In this document: piece by piece, positions 2,004-26,143 of the stretch | How positions within the stretch are numbered: position 1 is the stretch's first letter | Layout of the letters: each line of letters starts with the position of its first letter | Assembly: GCA_039198915.1 (NCBI GenBank) | Contig: JBCCTE010000001.1 | Span: forward strand, 1 to 26,143 | Length of the DNA: 26,143 nucleotides | Origin: Cyanobacteria bacterium P01_D01_bin.73 | Lineage (GTDB): Bacteria > Cyanobacteriota > Cyanobacteriia > CACIAM-69d | Direction of reading: 5' to 3' | The notes under the pieces: model-generated | What the model was told of the DNA's origin: nothing | The model's input: only the letters and a program-made list of their open reading frames with translations | The model's database searches: none | Translations under genes and position numbers: made by a program

Positions 2004-2249
2004 TCAATCGAAAAGCGAATCCAGAGCTTTGCCTGCGTCAAAGGGTTCGGATGGGGCGGCGGCGATCGCCGGGGTGTTGGGAACTGATGGAGCGCCGCTT
2101 ACCCAGGCATCGGTCTGAGTGCGGATCACGCCCTCCACCACAGCGCGGGGATTTACACCTTTTTTCAGCGCCGCCTCGATTACCGTTTCCCAGCAATCCG
2201 GTGCAAGCTTCATGGCTTTGTTGGCGGGCATGGTCAGGGTACGGGGCAT
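2004..2249 (-). CDS. Small partner of the ParM-like protein (candidate ParR-like adaptor)
   Basis: ATG at 2249 overlaps the actin gene stop (TAATG). 81 aa with a flexible P/A-rich tail ending ALDSLFD. Position matches type II partition adaptors. Confidence 0.55.
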   Translation of the reverse strand: MPRTLTMPANKAMKLAPDCWETVIEAALKKGVNPRAVVEGVIRTQTDAWVSGAPSVPNTPAIAAAPSEPFDAGKALDSLFD

Positions 2250-3283
2250 TAGGCGGCACCTCCCAAACGTTGAGCGTGTACCCACTGCCAATTGCCGATG
2301 CAGTTGGCACGGTGTGGGGCATCGGGAATCATGAACCGGGGCTTACCCGCCACCAGGTCGGATACCAAATTCGCCCCGCCGCCGGTGACCAGAATGCGGT
2401 CTACCATCCCCATCTGCGCCTGAAATTCAGCAGTAGTGGACGTGATAAACGACTTGAACCAGCGATCGCGAATCGGTCGCCACCAATCACCCCAGCTAAT
2501 CCCGGTGGATTCATAGCTGTGGGAGCCGTCCTGCAAACCTTCGAGAATGGCAGCCACTTTAGGGTGGGTGATGCCGTGGGCTCGTAGGGGCTGGGATAGT
2601 TTTGAGTTTTGGGCGATTAGATACGCCAAGCGCAGAACGCCATTTTTATCGCTGGTGAGCGATCGCACGGTGATTCCATTGGCATCGATAAGCCGCGCCA
2701 ACACAGTCCCACATCCCAGATCCAGCCCCAGAGTTAGCCCGCTACCCAAGCGCCCCTGGTTACGGCACAATGCCCAGCTCCCAAATAATTCGTCCAACAC
2801 TGTGACGCTGCGAATATCGATGCTGTAGCCAACGCCGTTGCGGCGGAATAAGAATGGTCCGGTTAAGTCTGCTGTAATTTGCTCACGCACCAGGTCATGA
2901 GAGTGGTGGCATAACACCAGATCAGCCTGATTAGTTTTGGATTTTGTGGGTAGCCCAGCCGCTACGAACAGGCGGATTAGTTCGGTTTTATTGCCGGTGG
3001 CAGCTACCTGGCAGGTGTCGTAGTAGGAAGCCTGTTGACCAACGTGGTACCGGGCACCGTCTACCTCGACGACGGGGGAATTTTTGACCGCTTGGATGGT
3101 TGGAGCGCCGTCGGGAATGGGAGCATACAGCGCCCGGATTAAACCATAGGAGCGCCCGTCGTAGATTTTGACGGCGGCGTTACCGGCGTCGATGGAAACC
3201 AAGGGTACTGGGGAAGCTGGGGCAGAAAATTGCGCAGGCGGCGGCGCGGGGGCGATGGTTGCCCCCTGTCGGGATGTGGTCAT
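2249..3283 (-). CDS. ParM/StbA-family actin-like ATPase
   Basis: Phosphate-1 VSIDAGNAAVK, phosphate-2 LGLDLGCGT, adenosine motif ILVTGGGAN. Likely start MTTSRQ at 3283 (ORF extends to 3448). Confidence 0.88.
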   Translation of the reverse strand: MTTSRQGATIAPAPPPAQFSAPASPVPLVSIDAGNAAVKIYDGRSYGLIRALYAPIPDGAPTIQAVKNSPVVEVDGARYHVGQQASYYDTCQVAATGNKTELIRLFVAAGLPTKSKTNQADLVLCHHSHDLVREQITADLTGPFLFRRNGVGYSIDIRSVTVLDELFGSWALCRNQGRLGSGLTLGLDLGCGTVLARLIDANGITVRSLTSDKNGVLRLAYLIAQNSKLSQPLRAHGITHPKVAAILEGLQDGSHSYESTGISWGDWWRPIRDRWFKSFITSTTAEFQAQMGMVDRILVTGGGANLVSDLVAGKPRFMIPDAPHRANCIGNWQWVHAQRLGGAA

Positions 3284-3534
3284 TGGATGTACTTGAAAGC
3301 TGTAATTGCGCGGGTGAATCACTAGAACAGCCGGTGATGCTTCTATCGCAGGAACCGGTATCCGTTCGTTTGCAATCGAATCCGCTTTAGATTCCTTCAC
3401 ATTTAGCCAGCGGATAAGAAGAAAACGCTGGAACAGCAAGCGGAGCAACGGTTTCGCGGGCGTGTGGGTCTTATCCAGGGACGCCTAGCGCGATGGGTAC
3501 GTTCGTTTACCATTGAACCAATACTATCACAAAA

Positions 3535-3636
3535 ATATCTATTTAGATATCAAAAAGATATTAATGCGATGATAGAATTTATATGCCAGGGAGAAATCGG
3601 CAATGATGCGAGAATTATTGATATCTAGATAGATAT
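3535..3636. promoter_or_regulatory. Two ATATCT-N4-AGATAT palindromes in the AT-rich divergent intergenic region
   Basis: 3535-3550 atatct-attt-agatat and 3621-3636 atatct-agat-agatat, plus a half-site agatat at 3556-3561. Confidence 0.6.
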
Positions 3637-3648
3637 GGTTTGCACATC

Positions 3649-3900
3649 ATGCCGAAGCAAAGCCCTGACCCTACACCTTCTAAGCCAGAATCTGAGCGTT
3701 TGCTGGTGACCTTGCCCGGATTTACCGCTGGGCGGTTTAAGTTGCTTTCAGAAAAAATGGGAGGTGAAGCGCTGGCGTCTCTCGTCAGACGAGCTGCTGA
3801 GGAGTGGGTTGTTTCAGACAACTATGATCGACTGCTTAAAGCGGCGATCGAACAAGAGCAATCCCAACCTGGCGATACAGGTCAGTTAGTTAAGGAGTAA
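3649..3900 (+). CDS. CopG/ribbon-helix-helix-like regulator
   Basis: ERLLVTLP strand followed by two helices (ALASLVRRAAEEW). Divergent from the ParM-like operon. Confidence 0.65.
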   Translation: MPKQSPDPTPSKPESERLLVTLPGFTAGRFKLLSEKMGGEALASLVRRAAEEWVVSDNYDRLLKAAIEQEQSQPGDTGQLVKE

Positions 3901-3903
3901 GCC

Positions 3904-4125
3904 ATGGAGAAGGCTAAACGGGCCACGATTCAGTTGGGCGATCGCGAATTGGAAGTTTTCCAGTTGCCCGACGGCTCGTATCGACTTAGCCAGTCCCAGG
4001 TTGCTGAGGCAGTAGAAAAGCCGGAAGCGAATTTCCCAGACTTTTTAGGCAAAAAATGACTGGAATCCTTACCTGGACTGGATCGTTCTAGTCATACTTT
4101 TTTGAAAATTGAGTACGAGGAATAG
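3904..4125 (+). pseudogene. Truncated antirepressor/P63C-like N-terminal fragment with in-frame TGA
   Basis: MEKAKRATIQLGDRELEVFQLPDGSYRLSQSQVAEAVEK..., TGA at 4057-4059, then the frame continues LESLPGLD...EYEE* into the dinD start. Confidence 0.55.
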
Positions 4126-4972
4126 TGTGGAATCTGAAACCATCAATCAACTATTTGAAGTTTTCGAATCTCATGCTCAAACCACAGAATCTGGCATTGA
4201 GTATTGGCTAGCACGCGACTTGCAGCATCTACTTGGATATTCCAAGTGGTCTAATTTCCTCAATGTGCTTTCCAAGGCAAAAACGGCTTGCGATGTCTCT
4301 GGAAACAACGTCTCAGACCATTTTGCCGACGTCGGTAAAATGGTCCAGCTCGGCTCTGGCGGGCAACGAGAGATCAGCGACGTTATGCTCACTCGCTATG
4401 CCTGTTACCTAGTGGCTCAAAATGGCGACCCTCAAAAACAAGAAATCGCATTTGCCCAAACCTACTTTGCAATCCAAACTCGTAAAGCAGAATTAGTAGA
4501 AAAGCGTGTATTAGAAGCGGAGCGGCTCTCGGCACGACAAAAGCTGACAGCAACGGAAAAAGAGCTCTCGCAGGTTATCTACGAAAAAACCGGCGGCAAC
4601 CGTAACTTTGGGTTAATTCGAAGTAAGGGTGATCAGGCGCTATTTGGTAGCAGTACCAAGGCGATGAAAGCCAGGTGGAACATTCCTGACAGGCGTCCTT
4701 TAGCGGATTTCGCACCCACCATCATTCTCAAAGCCAAGGACTTTGCTGCTGAAATCACAATTTTCAATACTCGAGCCAACGACCTCGACACAGAGCCACA
4801 AATATCCAGTGAGCACGTAACCAACAATCAGGCGGTACGCAAGACGCTGCTAGACCGAGGAATCCGCCCAGAGACCCTGGAACCGGATGAGGATATCAAA
4901 AAGGTGGAGCGACGGCTCAAATCTGAGAATAAGAAAACGTCAAAAGATCCACCCGCCTTAAATACGGAATAG
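4109..4972 (+). CDS. dinD: DNA damage-inducible protein D (BRO-like N-terminus)
   Basis: EYWLARDLQHLLGYSKW, LTRYACYLVAQNGDP, FAQTYFAIQTRKAE, PLADFAPTI and EHVTNNQAVR are characteristic DinD blocks. Confidence 0.9.
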   Translation: MSTRNSVESETINQLFEVFESHAQTTESGIEYWLARDLQHLLGYSKWSNFLNVLSKAKTACDVSGNNVSDHFADVGKMVQLGSGGQREISDVMLTRYACYLVAQNGDPQKQEIAFAQTYFAIQTRKAELVEKRVLEAERLSARQKLTATEKELSQVIYEKTGGNRNFGLIRSKGDQALFGSSTKAMKARWNIPDRRPLADFAPTIILKAKDFAAEITIFNTRANDLDTEPQISSEHVTNNQAVRKTLLDRGIRPETLEPDEDIKKVERRLKSENKKTSKDPPALNTE

Positions 4973-5772
4973 TACGGTCCCATCACGTTTACAACCAGTG
5001 GGATTTTCTCCTGAATTATGAACTGGTTATCGCTAATGGACCACCAACCAAAACAGCAATGTTTTTTTCATGATTTCTATTATCTTTCTCGTGTTTTATC
5101 AACCTTTTTAAAACACAGAGTATTTATCCTAGGTCAGGTCACTTCCCAGAGAAAAAACGTTCTTTAAATAATGGGTACTCAACCCAATTAAAGTACGTTT
5201 AAGCAATTAAAGATGACTTTAGATCCAGATAGGATCTATTTGCGTAAATACAATTTTGATCGGCTAATATAAAACCAAGAAAAAATTGGTCTCGAGAACT
5301 AGAAAGCGAACCCTGGTTGTCCCCAAGGTCCGCTTTCACAAAAACTGAAGTTTCGCCGCTTCAAAGTTATGGAATTATTCTACTCGCAAAAAATCATTTC
5401 TCCCACCCTTGCCTGGCAGCTATGCGCAGCAGCTCAGGGGTGGGTTTGTTCGTTTATTGAGGGTCAAACCATGACCGCTTCATTGAAAAACTGCCTAAAA
5501 ACGGTGAAGACCCCTAGGGCTGGATAGCTCTAAGGGCCTTGCAAAACCTTTCCCTGTCATCGCGATCAAAGTTTGCCGACTCAAGACGCGATGCGGGGGC
5601 TCTAGCCCAACTCCAAACCGCTGCTACCAACAGCAACCTGGACCAGGCTTTTATCCAACCGAATTGGAGACCGATTGAATTCAGCAAAAACGACATCAGA
5701 AATGGCGCTTTTGCATGAACGGCATAAGAAATGCCGCAAACCACCTGTACACACGTGTAAACAGAGGTCTAA

Positions 5773-7608
5773 GTGAATCATAGCGCATGTACACACACAC
5801 CTGGTACCAGTGAACCAGCAGCACCGCTTCAGGCGATCCAAAGCACCCTAATTCCCCTATTTCCCCAAAGATCGCCCCAGCGCCGGATCCAGCTCCGGGA
5901 CTACCAAACGCAGATGCTTCGGGAAATTTATCGAGCAATTCGTGGGAACCAGTCCCGAGTGTTGGCGATCGCCGTCATGGGCGCGGGCAAGACGGTCCTA
6001 GCTAGCAAAATTATGTCCGACGCCGTGAGCAAGGGACGGCGGGCGCTATTCCTAGTCAGCCTCAACTGCCTGCTGGACCAGGCGGCGGGCACCCTAGAAA
6101 AATTTGGGATCCGTTGCTCAGTCTTGCAGGGCGATCGCGATTTCGACACCGGCGCACCGGCGATCGTCGCCAGTCTCCAAACAATCGCCGCGCGGCAACG
6201 GCGGGGGCAGTCTCTGGGCCAGATCCTAGGGCGCAATTTTGGGGTGGTATTCCTCGATGAGGCTCACATCACCGCATGGGATAAAACCTACACCGCCATT
6301 TCAGACTGGCTTCCTAACACCGCCATCATCGGGCTCACTGCAACTCCATGGCGGCTCAGTAAAAAGCAATGGCTAGGGCAGCAATTTGAGAGTGCTGTTA
6401 TTGGACCCCAGCCCCTAGACATCATCAAAATGGGCGGCGCGGTCCCGGCTCGCATTTTTCGCTTGGACGGGGCAATCAAGGAAACCGAGCTAAAGGTGCG
6501 CCAGGGTGAGTACGCCGACAGCTCCATTGCTCGACAAGCAACAACGCCAGAAAGCCTCGCAATCGTATTGAACGGGTACCAAGAACATTGCAGCGATCGC
6601 CCGGCGCTAATGGTGGGGGCCACCGTCTCTCAGGCTCAAGCAACAGCCGACCATTTCAATCAGCACGGGATAAAAGCTGAGGTAATTACCGGCAAAACCA
6701 GCCACCGCGATCGCCAGGCAATCATCGCTCGCTTAGCCAGCGGTGCCACCCAAATCATTTGCTCAGTGGGTTGCCTGACCGCCGGTTTCGATTGCCCGCC
6801 AGTGTCAGCAATCTTATTTGTACGGAAAACAAAAAGCCGAGCATTATTCCATCAGGTGTGCGGTCGCGGCTCCCGTCCCCACCCTGGCAAAACCGACTAC
6901 CTAATCCTCGACTTTGGCAATAACCAAACCCATGGCAACCCCATGGCAGCTCAGGATTATTCCATCGCCGAACCGGAGCAGCATGAGCTGGTGACGGTGG
7001 ATAAAGCCTGTCCCGCTTGCTTAGAAGTGGTGAGCATCTTCGTTCAGATTTGCCCCAACTGTGGGCATGAATTTAGCGCCAATACTGCTGCGGATGATGG
7101 TACCGAGGAATTAATCCAAGGCACTCTTTCCGAGCGATTCACGAAACAACAGCTCGCGCAACGACAATGGCTACGTGATGTGCGACGGCGGGCATTTGCG
7201 CAGGACGAAAACCCTAGCCGGTGTATTCAGCAATTTATCGATACCCACGGCTTTACACCACCAAAAGACTGGACCCACGGCGCAGCTCTAGGGCGCACCA
7301 ACGCCAGCGTTAGCCGCCGCTTGCAATACGTTGAATATCTAGAACGCCATTGCACTGAAGCAAAAGACGTTGAGGGCTGGCTTGCCTACCACTGCCAGCT
7401 TGAATTTGGCTGCGATTTTGAGCGACTGATGGAGCTACCTGGGTGGTGGGACGTTTTGCGAATACCCCCTGACTCGGGACCGGAAGAGGTCAGGGAAGCC
7501 TATCGCCGGGCATCACTAATGGCTTCCACCCAGGCAGATTTCCACCAGTTGAACACGGCGATCGCGTCGGCTAAGGCAGATTTGCAGGGGGTACCTGCAA
7601 ATGGCTAA
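5773..7608 (+). CDS. DEAH-box SF2 helicase (RadD/YejH-like) with Zn finger and C-terminal J-domain-like region
   Basis: LRDYQ, MGAGKT, DEAH, TATP, TAGFDCP, QVCGRGSR, CPAC/CPNC. C-terminal WWDVLRIPPDSGPEEVREAYRR. Start codon uncertain. Confidence 0.9.
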   Translation: MNHSACTHTPGTSEPAAPLQAIQSTLIPLFPQRSPQRRIQLRDYQTQMLREIYRAIRGNQSRVLAIAVMGAGKTVLASKIMSDAVSKGRRALFLVSLNCLLDQAAGTLEKFGIRCSVLQGDRDFDTGAPAIVASLQTIAARQRRGQSLGQILGRNFGVVFLDEAHITAWDKTYTAISDWLPNTAIIGLTATPWRLSKKQWLGQQFESAVIGPQPLDIIKMGGAVPARIFRLDGAIKETELKVRQGEYADSSIARQATTPESLAIVLNGYQEHCSDRPALMVGATVSQAQATADHFNQHGIKAEVITGKTSHRDRQAIIARLASGATQIICSVGCLTAGFDCPPVSAILFVRKTKSRALFHQVCGRGSRPHPGKTDYLILDFGNNQTHGNPMAAQDYSIAEPEQHELVTVDKACPACLEVVSIFVQICPNCGHEFSANTAADDGTEELIQGTLSERFTKQQLAQRQWLRDVRRRAFAQDENPSRCIQQFIDTHGFTPPKDWTHGAALGRTNASVSRRLQYVEYLERHCTEAKDVEGWLAYHCQLEFGCDFERLMELPGWWDVLRIPPDSGPEEVREAYRRASLMASTQADFHQLNTAIASAKADLQGVPANG

Positions 7609-10600
7609 TCAATTCCACTACTACCGCCAAGGCGACTGCCCAATCTGTGGAGGTGCTGGGCATAAATCCAATAAAGTTTGCCGGTCCACCACCACCGATG
7701 ACGGACGCATTAAGGTCCATTGCTGGGGTGGTGGCGACGCTCTTAAAGGCTGGGGATATGTGGGCGATGATACTCACGGCATGGCCCAGTACATCGAAGG
7801 CTGGGGCGATCGCCGGGATATGGACCGGGATGCCAGAGAGCGCAAAGCAACGGCGGCGCGGGCACAGGCGGAAAAGGAGCGGCTGGGGCGATCGCTAACC
7901 ATTGAACGGGATGCCACTTACCGGAAATGGCAGGACAATCAACGTCTGAACCAGCGGGACCGGGACGAATTAACCCGGCGTGGTCTCTTGCCCAATGAAA
8001 TTCAATTAGCGCAGGAGCTGGGCTGGTTACGCCGCTGGGAGAAAGGGTCACAGCTATTTGGTCCTGCCAATATTCCCGGCGTAAATCATTGGGGGCTTGG
8101 TGGGCAATCGGGACTGGCGATCGCAGCGCCTAATTCTGACGGGCTAATCGCAGGCTTCCAAGTCAAGCCGGATAGCCAGGGCGATGGACCCAAATATCGC
8201 TGGCTAGCTGGCTGCGCCCTGCGTAATAATGAGCAGCCCATTCCGGTATTTCAGCATCCAGATCGCCGTGGGGATGTGGAAATCTGGATTACTGAGGGTT
8301 TTCTAAAGGCACTCGTTACAGCGTTTCTGGCATGGCGGCTAGGGCTCACCCATGTCGTAGTGGTGGGCTGTGGCGGTTCCAACTGGGCAAGCGCACCGGC
8401 GCAATGGGAACGCACCCTGCAGCGCCTCAATCCCACCGCAATCTACCTGTTACCCGACGCCGGCGCGGCCCAAAACGAAAACATCCTGGGGCAAGCGGAT
8501 AGGCTGCGATCGCTCCTACGCGGGCTGGGACATACTCTCAAATTTAAGTGGTGGGGGCAATTCGATAAATCGGGCAAGGGCAACCTAGACCCTGACGAAG
8601 TACCCACCCAAACCATCATCGATGCACCGGCGCTACCCGCTATCCCCGCCGGCGCGATTCAGCTTTGGAGCGAAACCCCCCAGCGACAGGCGTTACTGGT
8701 ACCCGGCGTAGGAATGCCATTGCTGTATGAGCCGGGCGATCGCCAGCGGGTGTGGGAGGGCATGGAAGATCGGGCGATCGCCAGTGGGCAGTCGTTAGTG
8801 GTGCTAGATACTAGCGAAGCCGGAAGCGGCAAATCGCGGGACGCCGGAATATTTCTGCACAACGCCCCCAATGGCACCCAGCGAGTGTTTGCGTCTCAGG
8901 AATATCGCAACCCATCGGATCCCACGTTAGATGCCCTGCCAGAGCTAGAAGCGAAGCACCTGGGCTTGGTCGGCAACGACATCGATGGGCGGTATATCCG
9001 TCGCACCCCTAAAGCTGGTGAAGAGCCCAACATTGAGCCGTCATGCGCCAAAGCACCCTATTTCCACAAGGCTCACTCCATGGGAGTGCAGGCGATCGCC
9101 GGTGCGGATTGCCATGCCTGTCGTACTTGCCCCATGGCAGATATCACCTATAGGGAAGGGGAGGTAGTAGCTCTAACCTGCCAACACCTAAATCGTAAGC
9201 GGGCTACCAAAGATACCCCCGCCTACCGGTGCCATCCCAGCACCATAGCCAAGCCCAGCGAGCGCTACGATTCCCAGACCGTAATCATTGATGAAGCCAC
9301 ACCGGCGCTATCAGCGGTGCAATCCCAAAGCTTTAGCCCTAATGATCTAGCCCAAGATTTTCAGGCACTCAAGGTAACGGCACCGGAGCCGGCTGCCATC
9401 ATTGAACCCCTTGTAGATGCCGATATTTTGGCGCTCCACAAGCTTTCTGCCAGCAAAGACCCAGAGGATTACTACGGGCTATCAAGTTACGCCCTGATGG
9501 AATCTCAAGCTCAGGCTGTTAAAGCTGTGGAGAGCCAACTAGAGGCATCTCCACACTTCGACTACATCTCCGCTGCCACACCGTGGGAATGGCTTGCCAA
9601 ACGCCTGGATAAAGCAACCCGCACACTACCTGATCATCACCTGGGCTCCACCCTGGAAGAGCACCTATGGGCACTGGATAACCTGGCCCGAGCACGATTT
9701 TTTGGAGAGCGGTTACGAGCAACAACCGGGCAACACAGTCGAGCCACCATGCCCCGCACCAACATTGCCAATGGTGATCGCCCGGCAACTCTACAGCTAA
9801 GCAATGCCAACGCCCGCACTAAGGCGCAATTCAAAACTGCTAACCGGCTGTCGATACTGTTAGATGCAACCGGCTCTCCCGCGCACCTACGACGCATCAC
9901 GGGACAACCGGTGTTCTGGATTCAGCAGCGGCGATCGCAGTTTCCCAACCTCACCATCAAACTCATCACCGGCACCGACAAGCTGAAGGTAAATCGTGAG
10001 CAATCAACGCGCGACCGCGCCCGATTATTGGCCCAGCGAGTTGCGGATGCTCATCAAGGACAATCCATCGGGCTTATTGATTACCAGCGCTACCGGGACG
10101 ACTATGACGGACTGGGCTTCAAATTCCTGTCCCGATTTGTCGAGTCCCGTGGCACCAACCGGGCTAAAGATTTGGATGCGATCGCCCTAATGGGTGTCGG
10201 CGTTTCTAACCTGGGGCAGCTGGCCATTCAGTATGAGTTACTGCACCGGTGCACTATTGCTGACCTTGCCCATGACCGTCGATTCCTCGCGTGGGTACGA
10301 AGGCGATCGCTGGACCTGACCGTTCAGGAAATTTCCAGACTTCGAGCCCAATGGTCATCTACGTCCCAGACGGTGTACGTCGCCGGGGCGAGCAAGACGG
10401 CGATCGCCCGACTGCAAAAGGAGTTTCCAGGGGCAACCGTCGAAGTGGTGGACGTAATGCGAATCAGCCCCCAATCGGCAACAGAGAAAGCCCAGCGTAC
10501 TGCCAACGCGGTTATCGATAGTGCAATAACTACCGCTAAAGACACCGGAGTGATGCCTTCCCAACAAGCCTTAGCGAAGGCGACCGGACGCTCGCTGTCC

Positions 10601-10966
10601 ACGGTACAACGAGCAGTTAAGTCTGTTTGCGGACAAGGCTACCGAGCATTTTCCAAAGTGGTCAAACGGCTATTAGAAACCATTAATAGTGGTTTGACCA
10701 CTTTCCAAAACAGTCTTGAATTGGAGACTTTGCGTCAGGAATTAGACGCTATTGGCTGTGGGCATTTCTTTGGCAGCGCCAACGCTTTAGAGACCATGGC
10801 CACATTGGAGGAGCATTTTAAGAATTACGGGCAAGCTCAGTTTCTACGGGCAATCGAAGGCGTTTCGACTTATGGGCGTGCCGGTATAGATCGGGCGATC
10901 GCAGCTGCGGCTGTAGACCAGGCGATCACCGCTCCAAAACCGGTGCTCATATTGCCACCGGAATAA
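7601..10966 (+). CDS. Plasmid replication primase-helicase (ZnF-Toprim/DUF3854-like-helicase-HTH; cyanobacterial CyRepA-like)
   Basis: N-terminal CPIC...C...HC, Toprim IWITEGFLKA and YLLPDAG, P-loop EAGSGKS, VIIDEA, LLDATG, C-terminal HTH SQQALAKATGRSLSTVQRAVK. Overlaps the helicase gene by 8 bp. Confidence 0.75.
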   Translation: MANQFHYYRQGDCPICGGAGHKSNKVCRSTTTDDGRIKVHCWGGGDALKGWGYVGDDTHGMAQYIEGWGDRRDMDRDARERKATAARAQAEKERLGRSLTIERDATYRKWQDNQRLNQRDRDELTRRGLLPNEIQLAQELGWLRRWEKGSQLFGPANIPGVNHWGLGGQSGLAIAAPNSDGLIAGFQVKPDSQGDGPKYRWLAGCALRNNEQPIPVFQHPDRRGDVEIWITEGFLKALVTAFLAWRLGLTHVVVVGCGGSNWASAPAQWERTLQRLNPTAIYLLPDAGAAQNENILGQADRLRSLLRGLGHTLKFKWWGQFDKSGKGNLDPDEVPTQTIIDAPALPAIPAGAIQLWSETPQRQALLVPGVGMPLLYEPGDRQRVWEGMEDRAIASGQSLVVLDTSEAGSGKSRDAGIFLHNAPNGTQRVFASQEYRNPSDPTLDALPELEAKHLGLVGNDIDGRYIRRTPKAGEEPNIEPSCAKAPYFHKAHSMGVQAIAGADCHACRTCPMADITYREGEVVALTCQHLNRKRATKDTPAYRCHPSTIAKPSERYDSQTVIIDEATPALSAVQSQSFSPNDLAQDFQALKVTAPEPAAIIEPLVDADILALHKLSASKDPEDYYGLSSYALMESQAQAVKAVESQLEASPHFDYISAATPWEWLAKRLDKATRTLPDHHLGSTLEEHLWALDNLARARFFGERLRATTGQHSRATMPRTNIANGDRPATLQLSNANARTKAQFKTANRLSILLDATGSPAHLRRITGQPVFWIQQRRSQFPNLTIKLITGTDKLKVNREQSTRDRARLLAQRVADAHQGQSIGLIDYQRYRDDYDGLGFKFLSRFVESRGTNRAKDLDAIALMGVGVSNLGQLAIQYELLHRCTIADLAHDRRFLAWVRRRSLDLTVQEISRLRAQWSSTSQTVYVAGASKTAIARLQKEFPGATVEVVDVMRISPQSATEKAQRTANAVIDSAITTAKDTGVMPSQQALAKATGRSLSTVQRAVKSVCGQGYRAFSKVVKRLLETINSGLTTFQNSLELETLRQELDAIGCGHFFGSANALETMATLEEHFKNYGQAQFLRAIEGVSTYGRAGIDRAIAAAAVDQAITAPKPVLILPPE

Positions 10967-11501: not shown

Positions 11502-12459
11502 TGGATTTCAGCGACCCCATCCTCGTCTGGTCAATGGACAGCTTAGACTTTCAATCCCTAGGAAGGATTCCGATGGATTTCAGCCAACGCTTTTAAGTTA
11601 AGGCGACCTTCTTTTTCAACTTTCAATCCCTAGGAGGGATTCCGATGGATTTCAGCAGATCCAAACAACCGAAAAAACGGGGCAAATCTCGCCTTTCAAT
11701 CCCTAGGAAGGATTCCGATGGATTTCAGCTGTAACCGAACCACTGAAAAGTCAGCGCATTGAACGCTTTCAATCCCTAGGAAGGATTCCGATGGATTTCA
11801 GCCATACGCTGCGTCGTTAAACGCCCGAGGGAAGGACTTTCAATCCCTAGGAAGAATTCCGATGGATTTCAGCGATAGTTCGCCTAGAGGGCACATGGTC
11901 CCAAACTCACTTTCAATCCCTAGGAAGAATTCCGATGGATTTCAGCGTCCCCTTAAGCCCATCACCCCTACAGAGGTATTTCTTTCAATCCCTAGGAAGG
12001 ATTCCGATGGATTTCAGCCCATCAGGTCCAGGTACCTGATCAGGATTCAAGTCCTTTCAATCCCTAGGAAGGATTCCGATGGATTTCAGCTTTGCACCAG
12101 GGCGGCGCTAATCCACCAAGATTTATCGCTTTCAATCCCTAGGAAGGATTCCGATGGATTTCAGCGGCTTGGCGTTTGGCGGCTAATTGATCCTCTTGTT
12201 CACTTTCAATCCCTAGGAAGGATTCCGATGGATTTCAGCTTTCATTCAGCTTCTCGGGGGTGAGGTTTAACAGTCTTTCAATCCCTAGGAAGGATTCCGA
12301 TGGATTTCAGCCAAGTTGAGGATCACTCTCCCGCAATTTAGGAGAACTTTCAATCCCTAGGAAGGATTCCGATGGATTTCAGCGCAGCTGGATGCTCCTA
12401 ATGGTTGGGTTTATCTCGAATCCTTTCAATCCCTAGGAAGGATTCCGATGGATTTCAGC
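11502..12459 (-). CRISPR. CRISPR array: 13 full 37-bp repeats plus a truncated terminal repeat, 13 spacers of 34-39 bp
   Basis: Minus-strand repeat GCTGAAATCCATCGGAATCCTTCCTAGGGATTGAAAG. Plus-strand starts at 11548, 11620, 11693, 11766, 11837, 11910, 11982, 12054, 12129, 12203, 12275, 12347, 12423; 11-nt remnant at 11502-11512. Orientation inferred from the 3' hairpin, the ATTGAAAG end and the degenerate left terminus. Confidence 0.98.
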
Positions 12460-12480
12460 TGTGGTGTCCTATAGCCCAAG

Positions 12481-14373
12481 CTATATCGGTGATTGAGCCT
12501 CCTTTTGCGCGGATTGATTATTAGCTGATATTCCAAAGGTGTCGGAAGTGGGATCGTGCGATCGCTCAGCCTGTGGCGATCGCAGATGTGTTGGGCTTTC
12601 CGCGACTCGCGCGGACCCTTTAGGCTGCACTTTTCGCCGTCTGTCCCGCGTAGCGGGGATTTCGGGATGATTCACCAAGTTGGACGAGAGAATATCCCCC
12701 GACTCGCGCACCAGAGTACGAACCTGACTATCACCGCTCTCAGGCGAACTACATAGGCCGTCAAAACGGCTAGGGGCATCGCTCACCGACACGAGCGCAC
12801 CCTTCTTAGACATCACTGGCGATAAGCTCAGTGGCTTTAAGCGTCCCGGTAGAATCCGGGATTTAGAATCAAGCGCATCGCTCAAGATGTTGGCGGCACC
12901 AACCCCATCACGATCACCTGTCCATCCGCAGCTACGGCAGACGTAGAGTCGTCCCCGTGGTTTGCGTCTAGCCCCGCACTTGGGACAAGTTTGAGAGGTA
13001 TAGCGCTCGCTTTGTAGCGATAGCGTTGCGCCATGTTCCTCTAATTTCTGCTGTAAAAGATCGCGTTGACGTCCAACCTCCCATAGGGCATTTCGCTTAG
13101 ATTGAAGCTTGCGAGTTTCCCCCTTTTTACGTCCCTTAGGGATGTTGAACACATCTCCAAAGTAAAGCGTTCCAACATCCTGGGCGATGCACCAATTAGC
13201 AATTCGCTTAGTCACACAGTGGTTTGCATAACGTAGCTTTCGCCGGGCGATCGCGTTATGGCGCCCAAGGGCATGCTTCAGTTTCCAATCCCTATTTGAG
13301 TAACGACGACGATACCGAAATGTCTCAGGAGAATTGCCCGCTGCAACGTGGCGCTCTAACTGTTCTCTGCGACGGTGGGCTGCAATGCGTTGGTGGGCGT
13401 ATTTCGTACCCGCCCCTGAAGACTTCGCCTCCATAGACGTCATTGTTTCCCGTTCTTCTGAGGAAAGGTAATAGCGCACTTGTCCACGGAACACCCGCGC
13501 CCTTTTTCGGTTAATAGCCTTTTGTGATCGTTCCCTCTGGCGCTTAACAGCAAGGATGTCATGCCCCGACACCGAACGAATACGCCCTTTGCTATCAGCT
13601 ACAACCATCGCTCGAAGCTGACCAGGATCGACCGCTGCCACATTAGTCAGCGCTTTCACCTCATCTGCATCTGGCTTTGGTAAGGAATAGGAAAGGTGAA
13701 TCCATGCATCTCCCCCGTCATCAAAAGAGATGGATGCTTGCAAGACTTCCATTCCTACCATCTTGGGAGGAACTGATACGGTGACAAAACCACCAATCTG
13801 AGTTTTAGACCCCAGCTGCAGGTGAGTACCGACCCACCGACACTCTGCCTTCAGGACATCCCACTTACGCCCTGATGGCTTACGAACAGAGCGGAACCGC
13901 ATCGGCAACTGAGCCCGGTAATTTCCCTTCTTGCGATGAGTCCAGAAGCCTTTGATTTGACCACGCATCCCCCGGCAGAGTGCGGATACTTGCTTAGAGC
14001 TAATGCCATACTTGCACCCGGCATCGAATGGAGCTGGTTGCCGGTCCGTCAAAGCTTTCAGGTACGGCCATGGCTCTAGCATGGCGTCCTTCCGGTACTC
14101 AGCTACCGGTACCCCAGCTATTACTTCACCTGTGTCCGCAAAAATACGGCGGGCTCGCTCAGCTCCTTTTCCTTTGATAAAGCAATGTCGAACTGCATCC
14201 CCATTAGCAATTGGGAATATTGGCTGTGAATGCAACCTCATTGCATTAACCAGCTCGTTGTAACACCATCGTTGAGCAGCCATTAGCGCCGCAACCTGTG
14301 CCCGCTTCTTTCTCGTCAAGCGCACTGGCGTGACGACAGTTCGCGACAGTTTAGTGGTTTTATCTTTCGCCAT
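12481..14373 (-). CDS. tnpB: CRISPR-adjacent TnpB/Cas12f-like RNA-guided RuvC protein
   Basis: N-terminal helix AQRWCYNELV, RuvC-I AAVD249PG, RuvC-II LYFG406D, QSE456RYTSQTC, Zn finger C463/466/479/482, RuvC-III DRD489GVGAANI. Stop codon 21 bp from the first repeat. Confidence 0.9.
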   Translation of the reverse strand: MAKDKTTKLSRTVVTPVRLTRKKRAQVAALMAAQRWCYNELVNAMRLHSQPIFPIANGDAVRHCFIKGKGAERARRIFADTGEVIAGVPVAEYRKDAMLEPWPYLKALTDRQPAPFDAGCKYGISSKQVSALCRGMRGQIKGFWTHRKKGNYRAQLPMRFRSVRKPSGRKWDVLKAECRWVGTHLQLGSKTQIGGFVTVSVPPKMVGMEVLQASISFDDGGDAWIHLSYSLPKPDADEVKALTNVAAVDPGQLRAMVVADSKGRIRSVSGHDILAVKRQRERSQKAINRKRARVFRGQVRYYLSSEERETMTSMEAKSSGAGTKYAHQRIAAHRRREQLERHVAAGNSPETFRYRRRYSNRDWKLKHALGRHNAIARRKLRYANHCVTKRIANWCIAQDVGTLYFGDVFNIPKGRKKGETRKLQSKRNALWEVGRQRDLLQQKLEEHGATLSLQSERYTSQTCPKCGARRKPRGRLYVCRSCGWTGDRDGVGAANILSDALDSKSRILPGRLKPLSLSPVMSKKGALVSVSDAPSRFDGLCSSPESGDSQVRTLVRESGDILSSNLVNHPEIPATRDRRRKVQPKGSARVAESPTHLRSPQAERSHDPTSDTFGISANNQSAQKEAQSPI

Positions 14374-15258: not shown

Positions 15259-16080
15259 ATGGGACCGATTTACCACGATTGGATCAGTCGAGCGCGATCG
15301 CCTCATACGGCTCGGATCTACCAACAGAGTTTGGATAAGTGGAAATCGGTGTTTGGGAGGTTGCCGTCTGGAGAAACGAGGGCAGCTAATTTAGATCGGT
15401 TTCTTAGATCGATGGCTCATTTGTCGCCAGCAACGAAAGCAACCCATATACGGAATATCAAAACGTTGTTGCGCTGGGGGCATGATGAGGGGCATTGGCG
15501 TTGTCCCCCGTCGGTGTTGAAATATCGATTGCGATCGCCGGGGACTGCTGCTGCGTCGCGATTCTTAAGTCCTGACGATGCCCGAGCCATCATTACGGCG
15601 GCTGGGAATGAGCGGGACCGGTTGATGTTGCAGTGCTTGTTTTCTTTAGGACTTAGGAATGCTGAGTTGCGGGGGCTGGAATGGTCCGACCTATACTATG
15701 ACCGCCTTACGGTGCGGGGTAAGGGGGAGAAGGTGCGATCTCTGATGGTGCCGGAAGAGCTGCTGAAGCAGTTGAATGTGTGGCGAGCTGCTAGCAGTGG
15801 TAAGGGGCTGATTTTCCGTAGTCATCGTAGTGGATCAAGACTGGAAGGGCAGCATGTGTGGCGGGTGGTGAAGGAGGCGGCGGCGATCGCCAGGGAGGCA
15901 GATCCGAGTATTCCCGATGCGAGTCCCCACTGGTTCCGTCATGCGTTGGCGTCAGCGGCTTTGCAGGGAGGCGCGACGGTTAAGCAGGTACAGGTGTATT
16001 TAGGGCATTCGTCGGGGCAAACGACGTTGGATACCTATGCCCATGTAATTGGGGATGTGGCGATTGCGGATTTTGTTTAG
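15259..16080 (+). CDS. Tyrosine recombinase (XerC/D-like; likely multimer resolvase)
   Basis: GLRNAEL, RGKGEK, HWFRH, LGHSS, TYAH: the catalytic R-K-H-R-H-Y set is intact. Confidence 0.93.
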   Translation: MGPIYHDWISRARSPHTARIYQQSLDKWKSVFGRLPSGETRAANLDRFLRSMAHLSPATKATHIRNIKTLLRWGHDEGHWRCPPSVLKYRLRSPGTAAASRFLSPDDARAIITAAGNERDRLMLQCLFSLGLRNAELRGLEWSDLYYDRLTVRGKGEKVRSLMVPEELLKQLNVWRAASSGKGLIFRSHRSGSRLEGQHVWRVVKEAAAIAREADPSIPDASPHWFRHALASAALQGGATVKQVQVYLGHSSGQTTLDTYAHVIGDVAIADFV

Positions 16081-22985: not shown

Positions 22986-23258
22986 TTAAACATCTGAGCG
23001 TTTAGACTCAAGCCATTCTTCTACAAGGCTCTGTACGACCTCGCTTATCTCGCGCTCACCTTCCATCGCAGCAATTTTTAGCTGCCGGTGCAAAGTCTTT
23101 GGCAGGTAAATTGTAGTCCGCTGATATGCGGGGTCTTTTGACTTGGAAAGCTTGGATGTCTGAACATCCAAGCTTTCCAAAGTTTGAATGTCTGGATTTT
23201 TGGGTGTTGAACGAGCGGCAAATAACTTACCAAAATCACCCGCTTTTTGATCAGCCAT
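22986..23258 (-). CDS. ParG-like RHH partition adaptor
   Basis: QRTTIYLPKTLHRQLKIAAMEGEREISEVVQSLVEEWL; overlaps the parA stop. Confidence 0.82.
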   Translation of the reverse strand: MADQKAGDFGKLFAARSTPKNPDIQTLESLDVQTSKLSKSKDPAYQRTTIYLPKTLHRQLKIAAMEGEREISEVVQSLVEEWLESKRSDV

Positions 23259-23847
23259 TGACTATTTCCTTCCCTATCTCCTGGTAACAGCTCCACGCGA
23301 TCGCCGCCATACGATCACCCTTCACTTGATTTACAGGTACACCCTCAAGAGCCGCTTTTTGGAACGCAGACAAGCGACGGATAGCTCCTTTAAACACGGG
23401 TAAGCCAGCATCTTCAATTGCCTTTCTTGCTTTGTCTCCTACTGCTGATGGCTTGGGCGGAACTATGGTTAGCAGCACCTTGAACTTGGCATCTAATCCC
23501 TTTAGCACTTCCACCATTTGAATCATTGCCGACATAGCTAAGGCGTCTGGTGAAGTTGGGAGGATTAGCAAATCACACCCTTCAGCAACTGTCTTCAATT
23601 CGTCAGGATCGGGGCGTGCGGCTGTATCTATAACTATGTGCTCATATTGCCGAGCAAATTTAACCGCCTGCTTTTCATCACATACCTTACACGGCAGTGA
23701 ACCGCGATCAGACCACCCCAATGCAGACCGATTAAGGTCACCGTCTACGAGCAGTGTTGTAGCGCTTTCATTCAGGTATGCAGCCAGGTGCAGGGCAGTC
23801 GTTGACTTGCCCACACCCCCCTTAAAGCTAGCAATGGTTAGTATCAT
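23251..23847 (-). CDS. parA: Type Ib partition ATPase (short ParA/ParF-type)
   Basis: Deviant Walker A KGGVGKST, LVDGD, IVIDT; 198 aa with no N-terminal HTH. Confidence 0.95.
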   Translation of the reverse strand: MILTIASFKGGVGKSTTALHLAAYLNESATTLLVDGDLNRSALGWSDRGSLPCKVCDEKQAVKFARQYEHIVIDTAARPDPDELKTVAEGCDLLILPTSPDALAMSAMIQMVEVLKGLDAKFKVLLTIVPPKPSAVGDKARKAIEDAGLPVFKGAIRRLSAFQKAALEGVPVNQVKGDRMAAIAWSCYQEIGKEIVNG

Positions 23848-23934
23848 TTGAGTGTTTGGACATCTAGATGTTTGAACTTTCAGCTGTCCAGGCTTTTAGA
23901 TTCCTGTAGCTTACTCGCCTTTCCCCCTCTCTCC

Positions 23935-24297
23935 GTGACTTATTCATTTACGCTCACCGGCGCGATCACTCCCAAAGCCCGCCCCAGAGTTACCCGTAAC
24001 GGCACTTTTATGCCTCGGAAATATCGAGAATGGAAAACACAGGCGATCACTTCCTTGCAACTGCAATGGAGCAACGCACCACCAATATCGGAGCCCGTGG
24101 GAATCGAGATTCTGCTGACGGGCAAGCACCCGCGCCGGGGCGATAGCGACAATGTAGCGGGGGCAATCTTGGATGCTTTGCAGGATGCGGGGGTACTCAA
24201 AAACGACAATTTAAAGGCGGTTCCACGGCTTGCCATTCAGTTGAAGTGGGATAAAGACAGAGACCCGATAGCAACCGTAGCTTTGACAGCAATTTAA
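23935..24297 (+). CDS. rusA: RusA-family Holliday junction resolvase
   Basis: PKARPRVT, YREWK, GDSDNVAGAILDAL, LKNDN. Likely start GTG at 23935. Confidence 0.88.
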   Translation: MTYSFTLTGAITPKARPRVTRNGTFMPRKYREWKTQAITSLQLQWSNAPPISEPVGIEILLTGKHPRRGDSDNVAGAILDALQDAGVLKNDNLKAVPRLAIQLKWDKDRDPIATVALTAI

Positions 24298-24331
24298 AAT
24301 CCCGGTGGCGTAATCTTGCTACCGGGATTTT
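24296..24331. terminator. Bidirectional terminator between convergent rusA and ATPase genes
   Basis: aaaatcccggtggc-gtaatctt-gctaccgggatttt, 14-bp stem with one G-U. Confidence 0.75.
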
Positions 24332-24334
24332 TGG

Positions 24335-24446
24335 TGTTGACGGAGGATTGTTGGTTATGCCCCGTTGACGGTCTGTTGTCAGAGTTGTTGACACCCCGTT
24401 GACGCCCGTAATTACTAGCTGTTGACGCTGTTGTCGCCTGTTGACG
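24335..24446 (+). repeat. Cluster of eight co-oriented YGTTGWCR octamers
   Basis: GTTGAC at 24336, 24364, 24387, 24398, 24421, 24440 and GTTGTC at 24375, 24430. Confidence 0.8.
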
Positions 24447-25737
24447 GTGGGTACCATTTCAGCCCCGTTTCGCCGCCTTTGAGGCTGCCAACGCCTCGAC
24501 CTGCCAACTTTTCCAATAAGGCGTTAATCGCCTCGCTAGGCAGCTCTCTGAAAGCTCGTTTTCCTTGTTTCAGTGCCCGCGCTGTTACTTCTCTTTTATC
24601 GGACCCAAACTCCTGAATTCGGTTGAGCAGTTGTTCATCCTCATCCCGTCCAACGACGACCGGCTCGTCCAATTCAAATAATGAATTTAGGTTAGCTACA
24701 AAGGGATTCGATGATCGCTCTGGAGTGGCGATCACTGTTTCTGTAGGGCGCACTGGCGGCAACAGAAGTGGCGGGATCCATTGGTCGATTGCTACCGATT
24801 CCGCATCCTTCAGTTTTACCGCTGGGCGCTTCAGCTCACCCAAAAATGCAGGGCGCACGCCGTTGGGAGCGTTAGGGTCTGGGGTAGCCAGTAACTTTAG
24901 TTCCAGCAACGCATCATCGCGGGTTTGGGCCATTCCTTTCTTGCCACCGACGCAATCGAGCGATCGCCCATGGCTTACGAATATCACCGCCATCCCCACT
25001 TTGCGAATGTCGGATAGAGCCACGCCTAGGAAGACAGCGGCGGCTTTGCAACGACTAGCCCAGTGGGTAAATTCCTCGCAAACAATGGTGATGGGTGAAA
25101 AGCTTGTAACGCCCTGTGACCGGGCTTCATAGCGCTCTTTTACCGTCTGTGCGAATTCAGCGATCGCCCCATCTACAGCGGGATAATCCATGCCCGCACC
25201 AACGATGGCCACGCCAGGGTATTCCCAATCACCCTTAGACCAATGAGGATCGCAGACGATAACCTGATGCCCACCTTGCAAGCGCTCAATCACCAGGCGA
25301 TGCGCTTGGGTGGTTTTACCGCTTCCCTGTGGGCCCCAAATGAGGACTGACGGATAACTGCGGAATAGTGCCCACCACTGGGATTGTGGCGTGGGTCCAT
25401 CTTCCAAAAGCGGCTGCTCAGCTGGGGCTAATTGGGCTTGTACCGTAGTCCACATTCCAGATACGGCGGCTAAAGACATATCACTTTGGGTTTGGAGGAA
25501 TTGCCCAAAGGCTTGCAACTCATGTTGAGCGTAAACACCACCAAGGGGCGCATAACGCTTGTGCTGGCGGCGCTGAACCCACGCTGCACTTAGGCATAAT
25601 CCAGCCGCACCGGTGGTGATCGCCTTAGCCAATCTGCCCAGCTGCGGCGGGGTGCTCACCAAGAACAGCAACACCGACAATCCCAGTAGACACCGGCTCT
25701 GTAGCAGAAATCGGGCGCTAACCTCTCTGGGATTCAT
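24415..25737 (-). CDS. Membrane-anchored FtsK/HerA-like P-loop ATPase with probable C-terminal winged helix
   Basis: Two N-terminal hydrophobic segments, Walker A GPQGSGKT, VIVCDPH, Walker B-like IVCEEF, IRKVGMAVIFVSH. Likely start at 25737 (ATGA overlap). Confidence 0.8.
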   Translation of the reverse strand: MNPREVSARFLLQSRCLLGLSVLLFLVSTPPQLGRLAKAITTGAAGLCLSAAWVQRRQHKRYAPLGGVYAQHELQAFGQFLQTQSDMSLAAVSGMWTTVQAQLAPAEQPLLEDGPTPQSQWWALFRSYPSVLIWGPQGSGKTTQAHRLVIERLQGGHQVIVCDPHWSKGDWEYPGVAIVGAGMDYPAVDGAIAEFAQTVKERYEARSQGVTSFSPITIVCEEFTHWASRCKAAAVFLGVALSDIRKVGMAVIFVSHGRSLDCVGGKKGMAQTRDDALLELKLLATPDPNAPNGVRPAFLGELKRPAVKLKDAESVAIDQWIPPLLLPPVRPTETVIATPERSSNPFVANLNSLFELDEPVVVGRDEDEQLLNRIQEFGSDKREVTARALKQGKRAFRELPSEAINALLEKLAGRGVGSLKGGETGLKWYPPSTGDNSVNS

Positions 25738-25979
25738 AGCGTTATCCCCCCTGCAATTCCAAGGGCGATCGCCAACGCATCCAGCAGCCATTCCGATAGC
25801 CGAAACTTAAGCAGCATCGCCACACCAATGCCCACCAACAGCACCGCAAATACAGCACCGAACCACAGCCCTAAGTCGGAGTTGTGGTGTAGAAGAAAGC
25901 CGATTAGTTGGGTAATGATGCTGGTGCCTATGGCGATTGCACCGGCACGATAAAGGTGTAATTCCAAATTCATAGTCAA
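25734..25979 (-). CDS. Small multi-pass membrane protein
   Basis: 81 aa, mostly hydrophobic (2-3 TM), coupled to the ATPase gene. Confidence 0.75.
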   Translation of the reverse strand: MTMNLELHLYRAGAIAIGTSIITQLIGFLLHHNSDLGLWFGAVFAVLLVGIGVAMLLKFRLSEWLLDALAIALGIAGGITL

Positions 25980-26011: not shown

Positions 26012-26143
26012 TTAGGCTTGGGAGCGCCGGAACATATACCCCACGGCATTGCCAGCGGTAAGGGCGATGGAGCTGGGGACAATCTGATCAGCCGGCAACT
26101 TCCCAGTGGCGGCAGCTACCACCAAAGCAGCGGGGGCTCCTAG
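26012..26143 (-). CDS. 3' part of a second copy of the 799-1071 gene (ends ...GYMFRRSQA*)
   Basis: The repeat encodes LGAPAALVV...GYMFRR, then SQA and a TAA stop at 26012-26014. Confidence 0.6.
   Translation of the reverse strand, partial: LGAPAALVVAAATGKLPADQIVPSSIALTAGNAVGYMFRRSQA
26025..26143 (+). repeat. 119-bp direct repeat, copy 2 (truncated by window end)
   Basis: Identical to 809-927. True length is unknown because the window ends here. Confidence 0.97.

Follow-up and report, generated by a model that had tools for sequence, protein, structure and literature searches.

Some 50 independent origins of type V CRISPR effectors from TnpB have been catalogued (PMC10691335, PMC12669027). 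In the TranC and V-U* groups, array-linked TnpB lineages arose independently by splitting of the omega RNA into tracrRNA (trans-activating CRISPR RNA) and crRNA (CRISPR RNA), and are often plasmid-borne and devoid of further cas genes (Jin et al. Cell 2025; PMC10691335). In Cas12n, the tracrRNA is encoded in the unstructured C-terminal tail of the effector (bioRxiv 10.64898/2026.03.27.714800). In the RIIr rearrangement (RIIr-5), glycine takes the place of the RuvC-II glutamate, and a glutamate at another position compensates for the change (Altae-Tran et al. 2023, PMC10691335, section 8). Here we describe a locus on a 26,143-nt contig of Cyanobacteria bacterium P01_D01_bin.73 (JBCCTE010000001.1; the whole stretch is hereafter called the window), in which a TnpB/Cas12f-like effector gene, P0001, is followed by a CRISPR array. 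With a probability of roughly 0.8, we regard it as a genuine minimal type V CRISPR-Cas module with a tracrRNA embedded in the open reading frame (ORF), carried on a plasmid-like circle of ~25 kb in a marine cyanobacterium. Its parts, an effector with a ~518-aa core, a structured RNA of ~340 nt in the last ~112 codons, and an array with 13 spacers, are co-oriented and contiguous. The effector is derived from the clade of TnpBs whose RuvC site is rearranged, here D249/G406/E456/D489.

Anatomy of the effector–array locus

P0001 ends with the stop codon TAG at 12483-12481, and the first repeat of the co-oriented array begins at 12459, leaving a gap of 21 nt. An earlier note on this DNA had reported a 630-aa ORF whose stop lies 21 nt from a co-oriented array of 13 repeats. 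Its coordinates are confirmed, and a truncated 14th repeat is added. The 13 spacers are all unique and 34-39 nt in length. No cas1, cas2, cas4, cas6, tnpA, or tns gene is found among the window genes, as that note had stated for the ~25-kb circle, and the circle is backed by a lasso assembly and a contig from another sample (see below).

The gene caller's model, P0002 (533 aa), starts at Met98, so that the N terminus is cut short by the stretch at 14083-14373. Because residues 1-97 of P0001 are conserved in homologues and are modelled as the first β-strand and a helix, the 630-aa ORF is the right gene model. AlphaFold2 predicts the core (residues 1-518) with confidence and the tail (residues 519-630) as disordered, with a pLDDT score (predicted local distance difference test) of about 28-30. 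Foldseek matches the model to AsCas12f (E = 1e-14). Further matches are ISFba1 TnpB, ISDra2 TnpB, Fanzor2, Cas12m2, Cas12h, Cas12p, and LaTranC, and all matches are at 11-15% identity. P0001 matches Pfam Cas12f1-like_TNB with 63 bits and NCBIfam guided_TnpB with 91.8 bits (under the cut-off of 100), and a search of the ESM Atlas returned generic TnpB clusters only. The RuvC domain is split, TnpB-like, and contained in a single effector, as in type V systems.

A family of array-linked effectors

Relatives of P0001 were collected by an exhaustive HMMER search (E < 1e-30). They form about 14 clusters at 50% identity, are all 500-850 aa long, and are only 30-64% identical to one another. Below them, the matches drop sharply to ordinary TnpBs of ~400 aa, with alignments confined to the stretch from RuvC-II to RuvC-III. 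In a maximum-likelihood tree, the family is monophyletic (100/100), is separated from the RIIr TnpBs by a long branch, and splits into two subclades. The closest homologues are members of a monophyletic, array-linked family and not ordinary array-less tnpB copies, in line with the earlier note, which had proposed a hidden Markov model search and a phylogeny against TnpB and Cas12 sets. The other loci come from the cyanobacterium Floridaenema evergladense, two viral contigs (74 and 114 kb), and metagenomes; PLSDB and INPHARED hold no full-length relative of P0001.

Fourteen other loci were examined for gene–array linkage; L003 and L004 share one encoded protein, P0005. An array lies downstream of the gene in 12 of them (L001-L005, L007-L009, L018, L019, L021, and L022). 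In ten (L001-L005, L007, L009, L018, L019, and L021), the first repeat starts at the stop codon, overlaps it, or lies at most about 25 nt past it. L008 has a shorter ORF and its array ~350 nt downstream, and the gene of L022 runs off the start of the locus, leaving the gene end unmapped. The repeats are 36-37 nt long and differ in sequence, with common 3′ ends such as ...GGGATTGCAAG or ...GTTGCAAG. The gene–array link across the family is not due to chance. The association with arrays is conserved among homologues of both subclades, as in established type V systems. The family has diversified and has arrays in both subclades, so the system is not the nascent one that the earlier note had considered. 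That note had also asked whether close homologues are array-linked and keep this repeat family; they are array-linked, with repeats that differ in sequence.

The two remaining loci, L006 (1686-2072) and L020 (7497-7595), have the scaffold RNA (see below) and a single repeat-like unit, followed by one putative guide. This layout corresponds to an omega-RNA-like single-guide form. Because L006 and L020 are nested among array-bearing members in the tree, their single unit is a secondary reduction.

The first, effector-proximal spacer usually measures 37-43 nt in the arrays of the window, L001, L002, L005, L007, and L018, exceeding the later ones (~35 nt) by 2-8 nt.

RNA-level constraint in the gene tail

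Between close pairs of loci, the core of the gene has a ratio of nonsynonymous to synonymous divergence (dN/dS) of 0.13-0.16 at a synonymous divergence (dS) of 0.33-1.5. The tail has a dN/dS of 0.7-0.9 at a dS of 0.08-0.47, a third to a quarter of the core value, which shows that the constraint acts on nucleotides and not on amino acids. The tail nucleotides can be aligned among members with cores only ~33% identical, and in L006 and L008 the same RNA motifs follow the stop codon and are non-coding. RNAalifold folds the tail and the first repeat into a consensus of 88 pairs, 48 of which have compensatory changes. When the partners are slid by 1-3 columns, the share of cells with canonical pairs falls from 91% to 36-43%, and compensated pairs number 10-22. 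No Rfam family matches the scaffold.

The folded tail contains an anti-repeat of 7-9 nt, located -97 to -91 nt from the array. It pairs with repeat positions 25-33 and leaves 4 nt before the spacer. In L018, which has a longer tail, it is found at -302. Anti-repeat and repeat covary completely across 11-12 loci, as illustrated by the following anti-repeat/repeat segments: window, CGATCCC/GGGATTG; L003, CGACCCC/GGGGTTG; L005, CGACACCGA/TCGGTGTCG; L007, CGACGATC/GATCGTTG; L009, CAGCAACT/AGTTGCTG; L021, CAACCAGC/GCTGGTTG; L022, CAACCGTT/AACGGTTG; and L018, CAACCCTTA/TAAGGGTTG. The helix has a mean length of 7.9 bp for cognate pairs versus 5.5 bp for non-cognate pairs, and the observed value was never reached in 20,000 permutations. 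The anti-repeat was found solely through alignment and covariation analysis; an energy-only search (RNAduplex, repeat against the 500 nt upstream) performed no better than with shuffled repeats.

Such complete covariation is a signature of a tracrRNA, suggesting that the tail RNA has this function. The scaffold abuts the first repeat, an arrangement that fits the omega-RNA-splitting model of TranC systems. The covarying helix is sequence evidence that the array crRNAs may guide the effector. The earlier note, which proposed no tracrRNA, had supposed that the TnpB-derived protein uses the adjacent array, and the linkage in 12 of 14 loci and the covarying anti-repeat both argue for it.

Could the array instead be a chance neighbour? 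An IS1341-type tnpB copy carrying an omega RNA of its own would then have landed next to an orphan type I-D array, which would be used, if at all, by a type I-D system of the host. The window repeat is indeed 27/37 identical, in the same orientation, to the type I-D repeat of a Leptolyngbya sp. BL0902 plasmid (L024, NZ_CP046159.1), which carries a complete type I-D adaptation module (cas6-cas4-cas1d-cas2) and a 90-repeat array. Both repeats have the same 3′ end, ATTGAAA(C/G), spacers of 34-39 nt are typical for I-D arrays, and the repeat hairpin would suit Cas6. However, an array lies directly or closely downstream in 12 of the 14 other loci, with differing repeats, and the covariation of the tail anti-repeat with its cognate repeat already contradicts a chance arrangement. 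Moreover, there is no tnpA, P0001 and the scaffold RNA are each single-copy in the metagenome-assembled genome (MAG), no repeats lie upstream of the effector gene, and type I-D genes are not found in the MAG (72% complete). We consider this explanation very improbable.

A rearranged catalytic site

In an alignment of 17 family members (A1), D249 of RuvC-I, G406 at the position of the canonical RuvC-II glutamate, and E456 are invariant, as are C463 and C466 of the zinc finger. C479, C482, and D489 of RuvC-III are kept in at least 90% of the members. The glycine at the canonical RuvC-II position together with a relocated glutamate ahead of the zinc finger is the arrangement of RIIr TnpBs, and the D/G/E/D pattern is common to 60-61 of the 62 nearest TnpBs outside the family. 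The plausible catalytic triad that had been noticed earlier therefore stands as a conserved site, although it is not the canonical one.

The rearrangement raises the question of whether the effector cuts. With the same architecture, a non-cutting effector could block transcription or replication of rival elements by crRNA-specified binding, as Cas12m does, or could act as a TldR-like regulator. Gly406 replaces the canonical RuvC-II glutamate in every member, Cas12m2 is among the structural matches, and altered or inactivated sites are known from several V-U groups and V-M (PMC10691335). On the other hand, D249, E456, and D489 are invariant or nearly so in a family with only 30-64% identity, and all four residues are kept in 60 of the 62 nearest transposon-type TnpBs. 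In addition, the Glu-to-Gly pattern is taken as a compensated, probably active site in section 8 of PMC10691335. A non-cutting effector is thus unlikely, and we favour a cutting effector.

A C-terminal motif resembling clamp-binding peptides

In 14 of 19 family proteins, the disordered tail is followed by the sequence QLx(L/I)W, 0-12 residues before the stop codon. This sequence resembles a β-clamp-binding motif. The same element is present in six loci known from DNA only, namely L018-L022 and L006, where it is a non-coding remnant with TGA in place of the Trp codon. The ORF stays open over 110-330 tail codons despite the weak constraint at the protein level. In the window, the Gln codon CAG is changed to the stop codon TAG and 6 nt are missing, so that P0001 lacks QLxLW.

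Gln and Leu of the motif, which lies shortly before the first repeat, are encoded by CAGCTT without exception in 12 family loci, despite synonymous options. The hexamer is unpaired in the consensus fold, and its invariance suggests an additional role at the nucleotide level, e.g. a tertiary contact or a part in RNA processing.

Outside the family, the ending QLSLF, QLTLF, or QLGLW is found in 5 of 144 RIIr TnpBs (P0031, P0038, P0042, P0051, and P0075), and the strict motif occurs nowhere else in the sequences of the 144. For P0031 and P0075, for which DNA is available, the motif is written with different codons. P0031 is a protein of 595 aa ending in QLSLF, and both of its contigs end 35-39 nt past the stop codon (L028:2703-2737 and L029:2586-2624). 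These contig ends begin with CTTGCAAC, like the 5′ ends of family repeats. P0031 may represent another array-linked lineage whose array broke the assembly.

The C-terminal 40-residue peptide of the family protein P0006 is predicted to dock in the canonical pocket of the MAG's DnaN, with ipSAE scores of 0.70, 0.70, and 0.74, versus 0.06 for the best control. On the calibration set of the tool, 55 of 80 solved complexes passed the mark, as did 3 of 110 mismatched pairs; the P0006–DnaN job does not resemble that set, and its pass may reflect memory of solved clamp–peptide complexes. TnpA of IS608 binds DnaN (PMC5027513), and a literature search found no paper describing a clamp-binding TnpB or Cas12. 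We tentatively propose, at somewhat less than even odds, that the family effectors and some RIIr TnpBs are tethered to the β sliding clamp by a C-terminal QLx(L/I)(W/F) on a disordered linker whose codons double as the tracrRNA. The tether may have been inherited from the replication-fork-coupled biology of IS200/IS605 elements. If the proposal is true, the family would provide a natural RNA-guided nuclease with replication-coupled target search, e.g. preferring replicating plasmids or phages, and would link RNA-guided nucleases to the replisome. Since the motif is lost in the window, the window copy would act untethered.

Proposed mode of action

We propose that the gene and the array are transcribed as one and that the tail RNA serves as the tracrRNA, a split omega-RNA scaffold. 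The anti-repeat CGATCCC would pair with positions 27-33 of every repeat, leaving an unpaired AAAG followed by the spacer. The effector loaded with this duplex would bind complementary DNA of competing plasmids or phages, most likely cutting it. New spacers would have to come from a type I-D-like Cas1-Cas2-Cas4 module acting in trans, which the I-D-like repeat makes plausible, perhaps with processing by Cas6; the earlier note had likewise supposed that Cas1-2 and possibly Cas6 of the host are borrowed. Repeats of this kind suggest how such systems may exploit the adaptation machinery of their hosts.

Several observations weigh against a functional module of this kind. The canonical RuvC-II glutamate is missing, so that cleavage would depend on the predicted activity of the rearranged site. 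The window copy has lost the C-terminal motif kept by most relatives. The repeat can also self-fold using the same GGATT segment, which would compete with anti-repeat pairing and suit Cas6 processing. No protospacers are found in INPHARED phages, PLSDB plasmids, the MAG, or the family loci, and three exact 22-nt spacer seeds have no match in IMG/VR viral contigs. Cas1, Cas2, Cas4, and Cas6 are not found in the 72% complete MAG. Finally, the sequencing runs that hold the element are DNA metagenomes only, with no RNA run among them.

The plasmid-like element

The window is a whole contig of a MAG that comprises 573 contigs and 3.3 Mb. HIP1 (GCGATCGC) occurs at a cyanobacterial density, 2.2 per kb in the MAG versus 1.5 per kb for the window itself. 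The contig ends in 119 nt (26025-26143) that are equal to 808-927 and not to the contig start, indicating a lasso assembly around a circle of ~25.2 kb. The 807-nt lead-in before the circle may be a variant or a misjoin. A Logan contig from another sample, 24,323 nt long with the array collapsed, agrees with the size of the circle, and the element is identical between marine metagenome runs of 2016 and 2024.

The other genes form a plasmid-like backbone (Table 1). It also includes a superfamily 2 (SF2) helicase gene overlapping that of a 1121-aa protein with a weak helix-turn-helix match, and the gene of a 458-aa P-loop ATPase. A Bro-N gene near the effector is also found in L002 and in cyanophage CL131. 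No accessory genes are conserved upstream of the effector across the family loci, and promoter and terminator scans gave nothing exceeding chance.

Table 1 Features of the effector–array locus and its surroundings, in window coordinates
Feature	Position	Strand	Remarks
Effector gene P0001, 630 aa	12481-14373	minus	TnpB/Cas12f-like core, residues 1-518; disordered tail, residues 519-630
RuvC-I Asp249 codon	13627-13629	minus	Motif AAVDPGQ; invariant in A1
Gly406 codon at the canonical RuvC-II glutamate position	13156-13158	minus	Motif YFGDV; invariant in A1
Relocated, predicted catalytic Glu456 codon	13006-13008	minus	Motif SERYTSQTCP; invariant in A1
Zinc finger CxxC...CxxC	12928-12987	minus	C463, C466, C479, C482; A1
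RuvC-III Asp489 codon	12907-12909	minus	Motif GDRDGVGA; A1
Conserved structured RNA, putative tracrRNA/omega-RNA-like scaffold	12460-12802	minus	Extends over the final ~112 codons and the gap of 21 nt
Anti-repeat CGATCCC	12550-12556	minus	Pairs with GGGATTG, window repeat positions 27-33
Degenerate remnant TAGCTTGGGCTATAGG of the CAGCTT...TGGG element (encodes QLxLW)	12468-12483	minus	From alignment of family tails
CRISPR array of 13 repeats (37 nt each) and the 12 spacers that separate them	11548-12459	minus	Repeat GCTGAAATCCATCGGAATCCTTCCTAGGGATTGAAAG on the minus strand
Spacer 13	11513-11547	minus	After the last full repeat
Truncated, degenerate 14th repeat GCTGAAATCCA	11502-11512	minus	Leader-distal array end
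Plasmid-like backbone	2249-10966, 15259-16080, 23251-25791		ParM-like, DinD/Bro-N, XerC-like recombinase, ParA, RusA

Comparison with known systems

The earlier note had taken the effector as Cas12f/V-U-like; by sequence, it is neither Cas12f nor V-U2. P0001 scores 17 bits against NCBIfam CRISPR_Cas12f2 (cut-off 450), and its structural likeness to Cas12f is at only 11-15% identity. V-U2 (C2c8), represented by gp061 of vB_AphaS-CL131 (PMC6293099), shares the cyanobacterial or cyanophage setting and a small TnpB-like effector by an array with no other cas genes. However, ~256 nt separate gene and array in CL131, BLASTP against gp061 aligns 42 residues only, and hhalign finds generic similarity (E = 9e-9). 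By eye, gp061 has an apparent canonical RuvC-II glutamate (IVMEDL) in contrast to the glycine of the family, with the hhalign register offset by a few columns.

Cas12k of the V-K CRISPR-associated transposons is likewise cyanobacterial, ~640 aa in size, and tracrRNA-dependent. V-K repeats end in a GGGTTGAAAG-like sequence. We agree with the earlier note that P0001 is not Cas12k-like: tnsB, tnsC, and tniQ are absent, the D, E, and D residues are kept, and the array is long with unique spacers. No PDB chain named Cas12k is matched, either by the single sequence or by the family profile.

Outside the family, the closest relatives by sequence are the RIIr TnpBs, which share the D/G/E/D pattern, the zinc finger, and a guide-RNA scaffold overlapping the 3′ end of the gene. 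In contrast to them, the family proteins are 100-250 aa longer and form a separate clade on a long branch, and their genes are single-copy, have no tnpA, and are followed by a multi-spacer array in place of a single guide. A mobile IS200/IS605 or IS607 TnpB of the obligate mobile element-guided activity (OMEGA) type is rejected on the absence of tnpA, the single copy, the 13 spacers, and the guided_TnpB score under the cut-off.

The family resembles the TranC and V-U* lineages in its mode of origin, although LaTranC (9JFQ) ranks only 32nd in the Foldseek search, at 15% identity. The lineage may already be among the catalogued V-U6 to V-U45 (PMC10691335) or TranC clades. Given the ~50 transitions already catalogued, it constitutes a separate branch of an already known kind of system. 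It provides a separate, well-supported case of a TnpB lineage becoming a CRISPR effector, here from the clade with the rearranged site. The sequence still appears to show the omega RNA divided between tracrRNA and crRNA, with the scaffold in the gene and adjoining the first repeat, and with single-repeat relatives in existence. A ~518-aa core with a defined scaffold and anti-repeat is also a candidate compact editor, whose protospacer adjacent motif (PAM) range and active-site chemistry may be unusual.

Judged from sequence, the closest described architecture is that of Cas12n (V-N, formerly V-U4 or C2c9), without a specific sequence relationship. The family profile matches 9J09 only with E = 9e-6 over 72 residues (positions 451-522, zinc finger and RuvC-III), and a single-sequence search gave no match, so that membership in Cas12n is rejected. 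As in Cas12n, a compact effector is followed by an array with no adaptation genes, and the codons of a disordered tail would encode the tracrRNA. Also as in Cas12n, the anti-repeat is predicted to pair with the 3′ part of the repeat, so that a few bases ahead of the spacer stay unpaired (bioRxiv 10.64898/2026.03.27.714800). Unlike Cas12n, the family has a rearranged RuvC-II, a longer tail (~112 aa) mostly ending in QLxLW, and, as its hosts, cyanobacteria and their plasmids and viruses.

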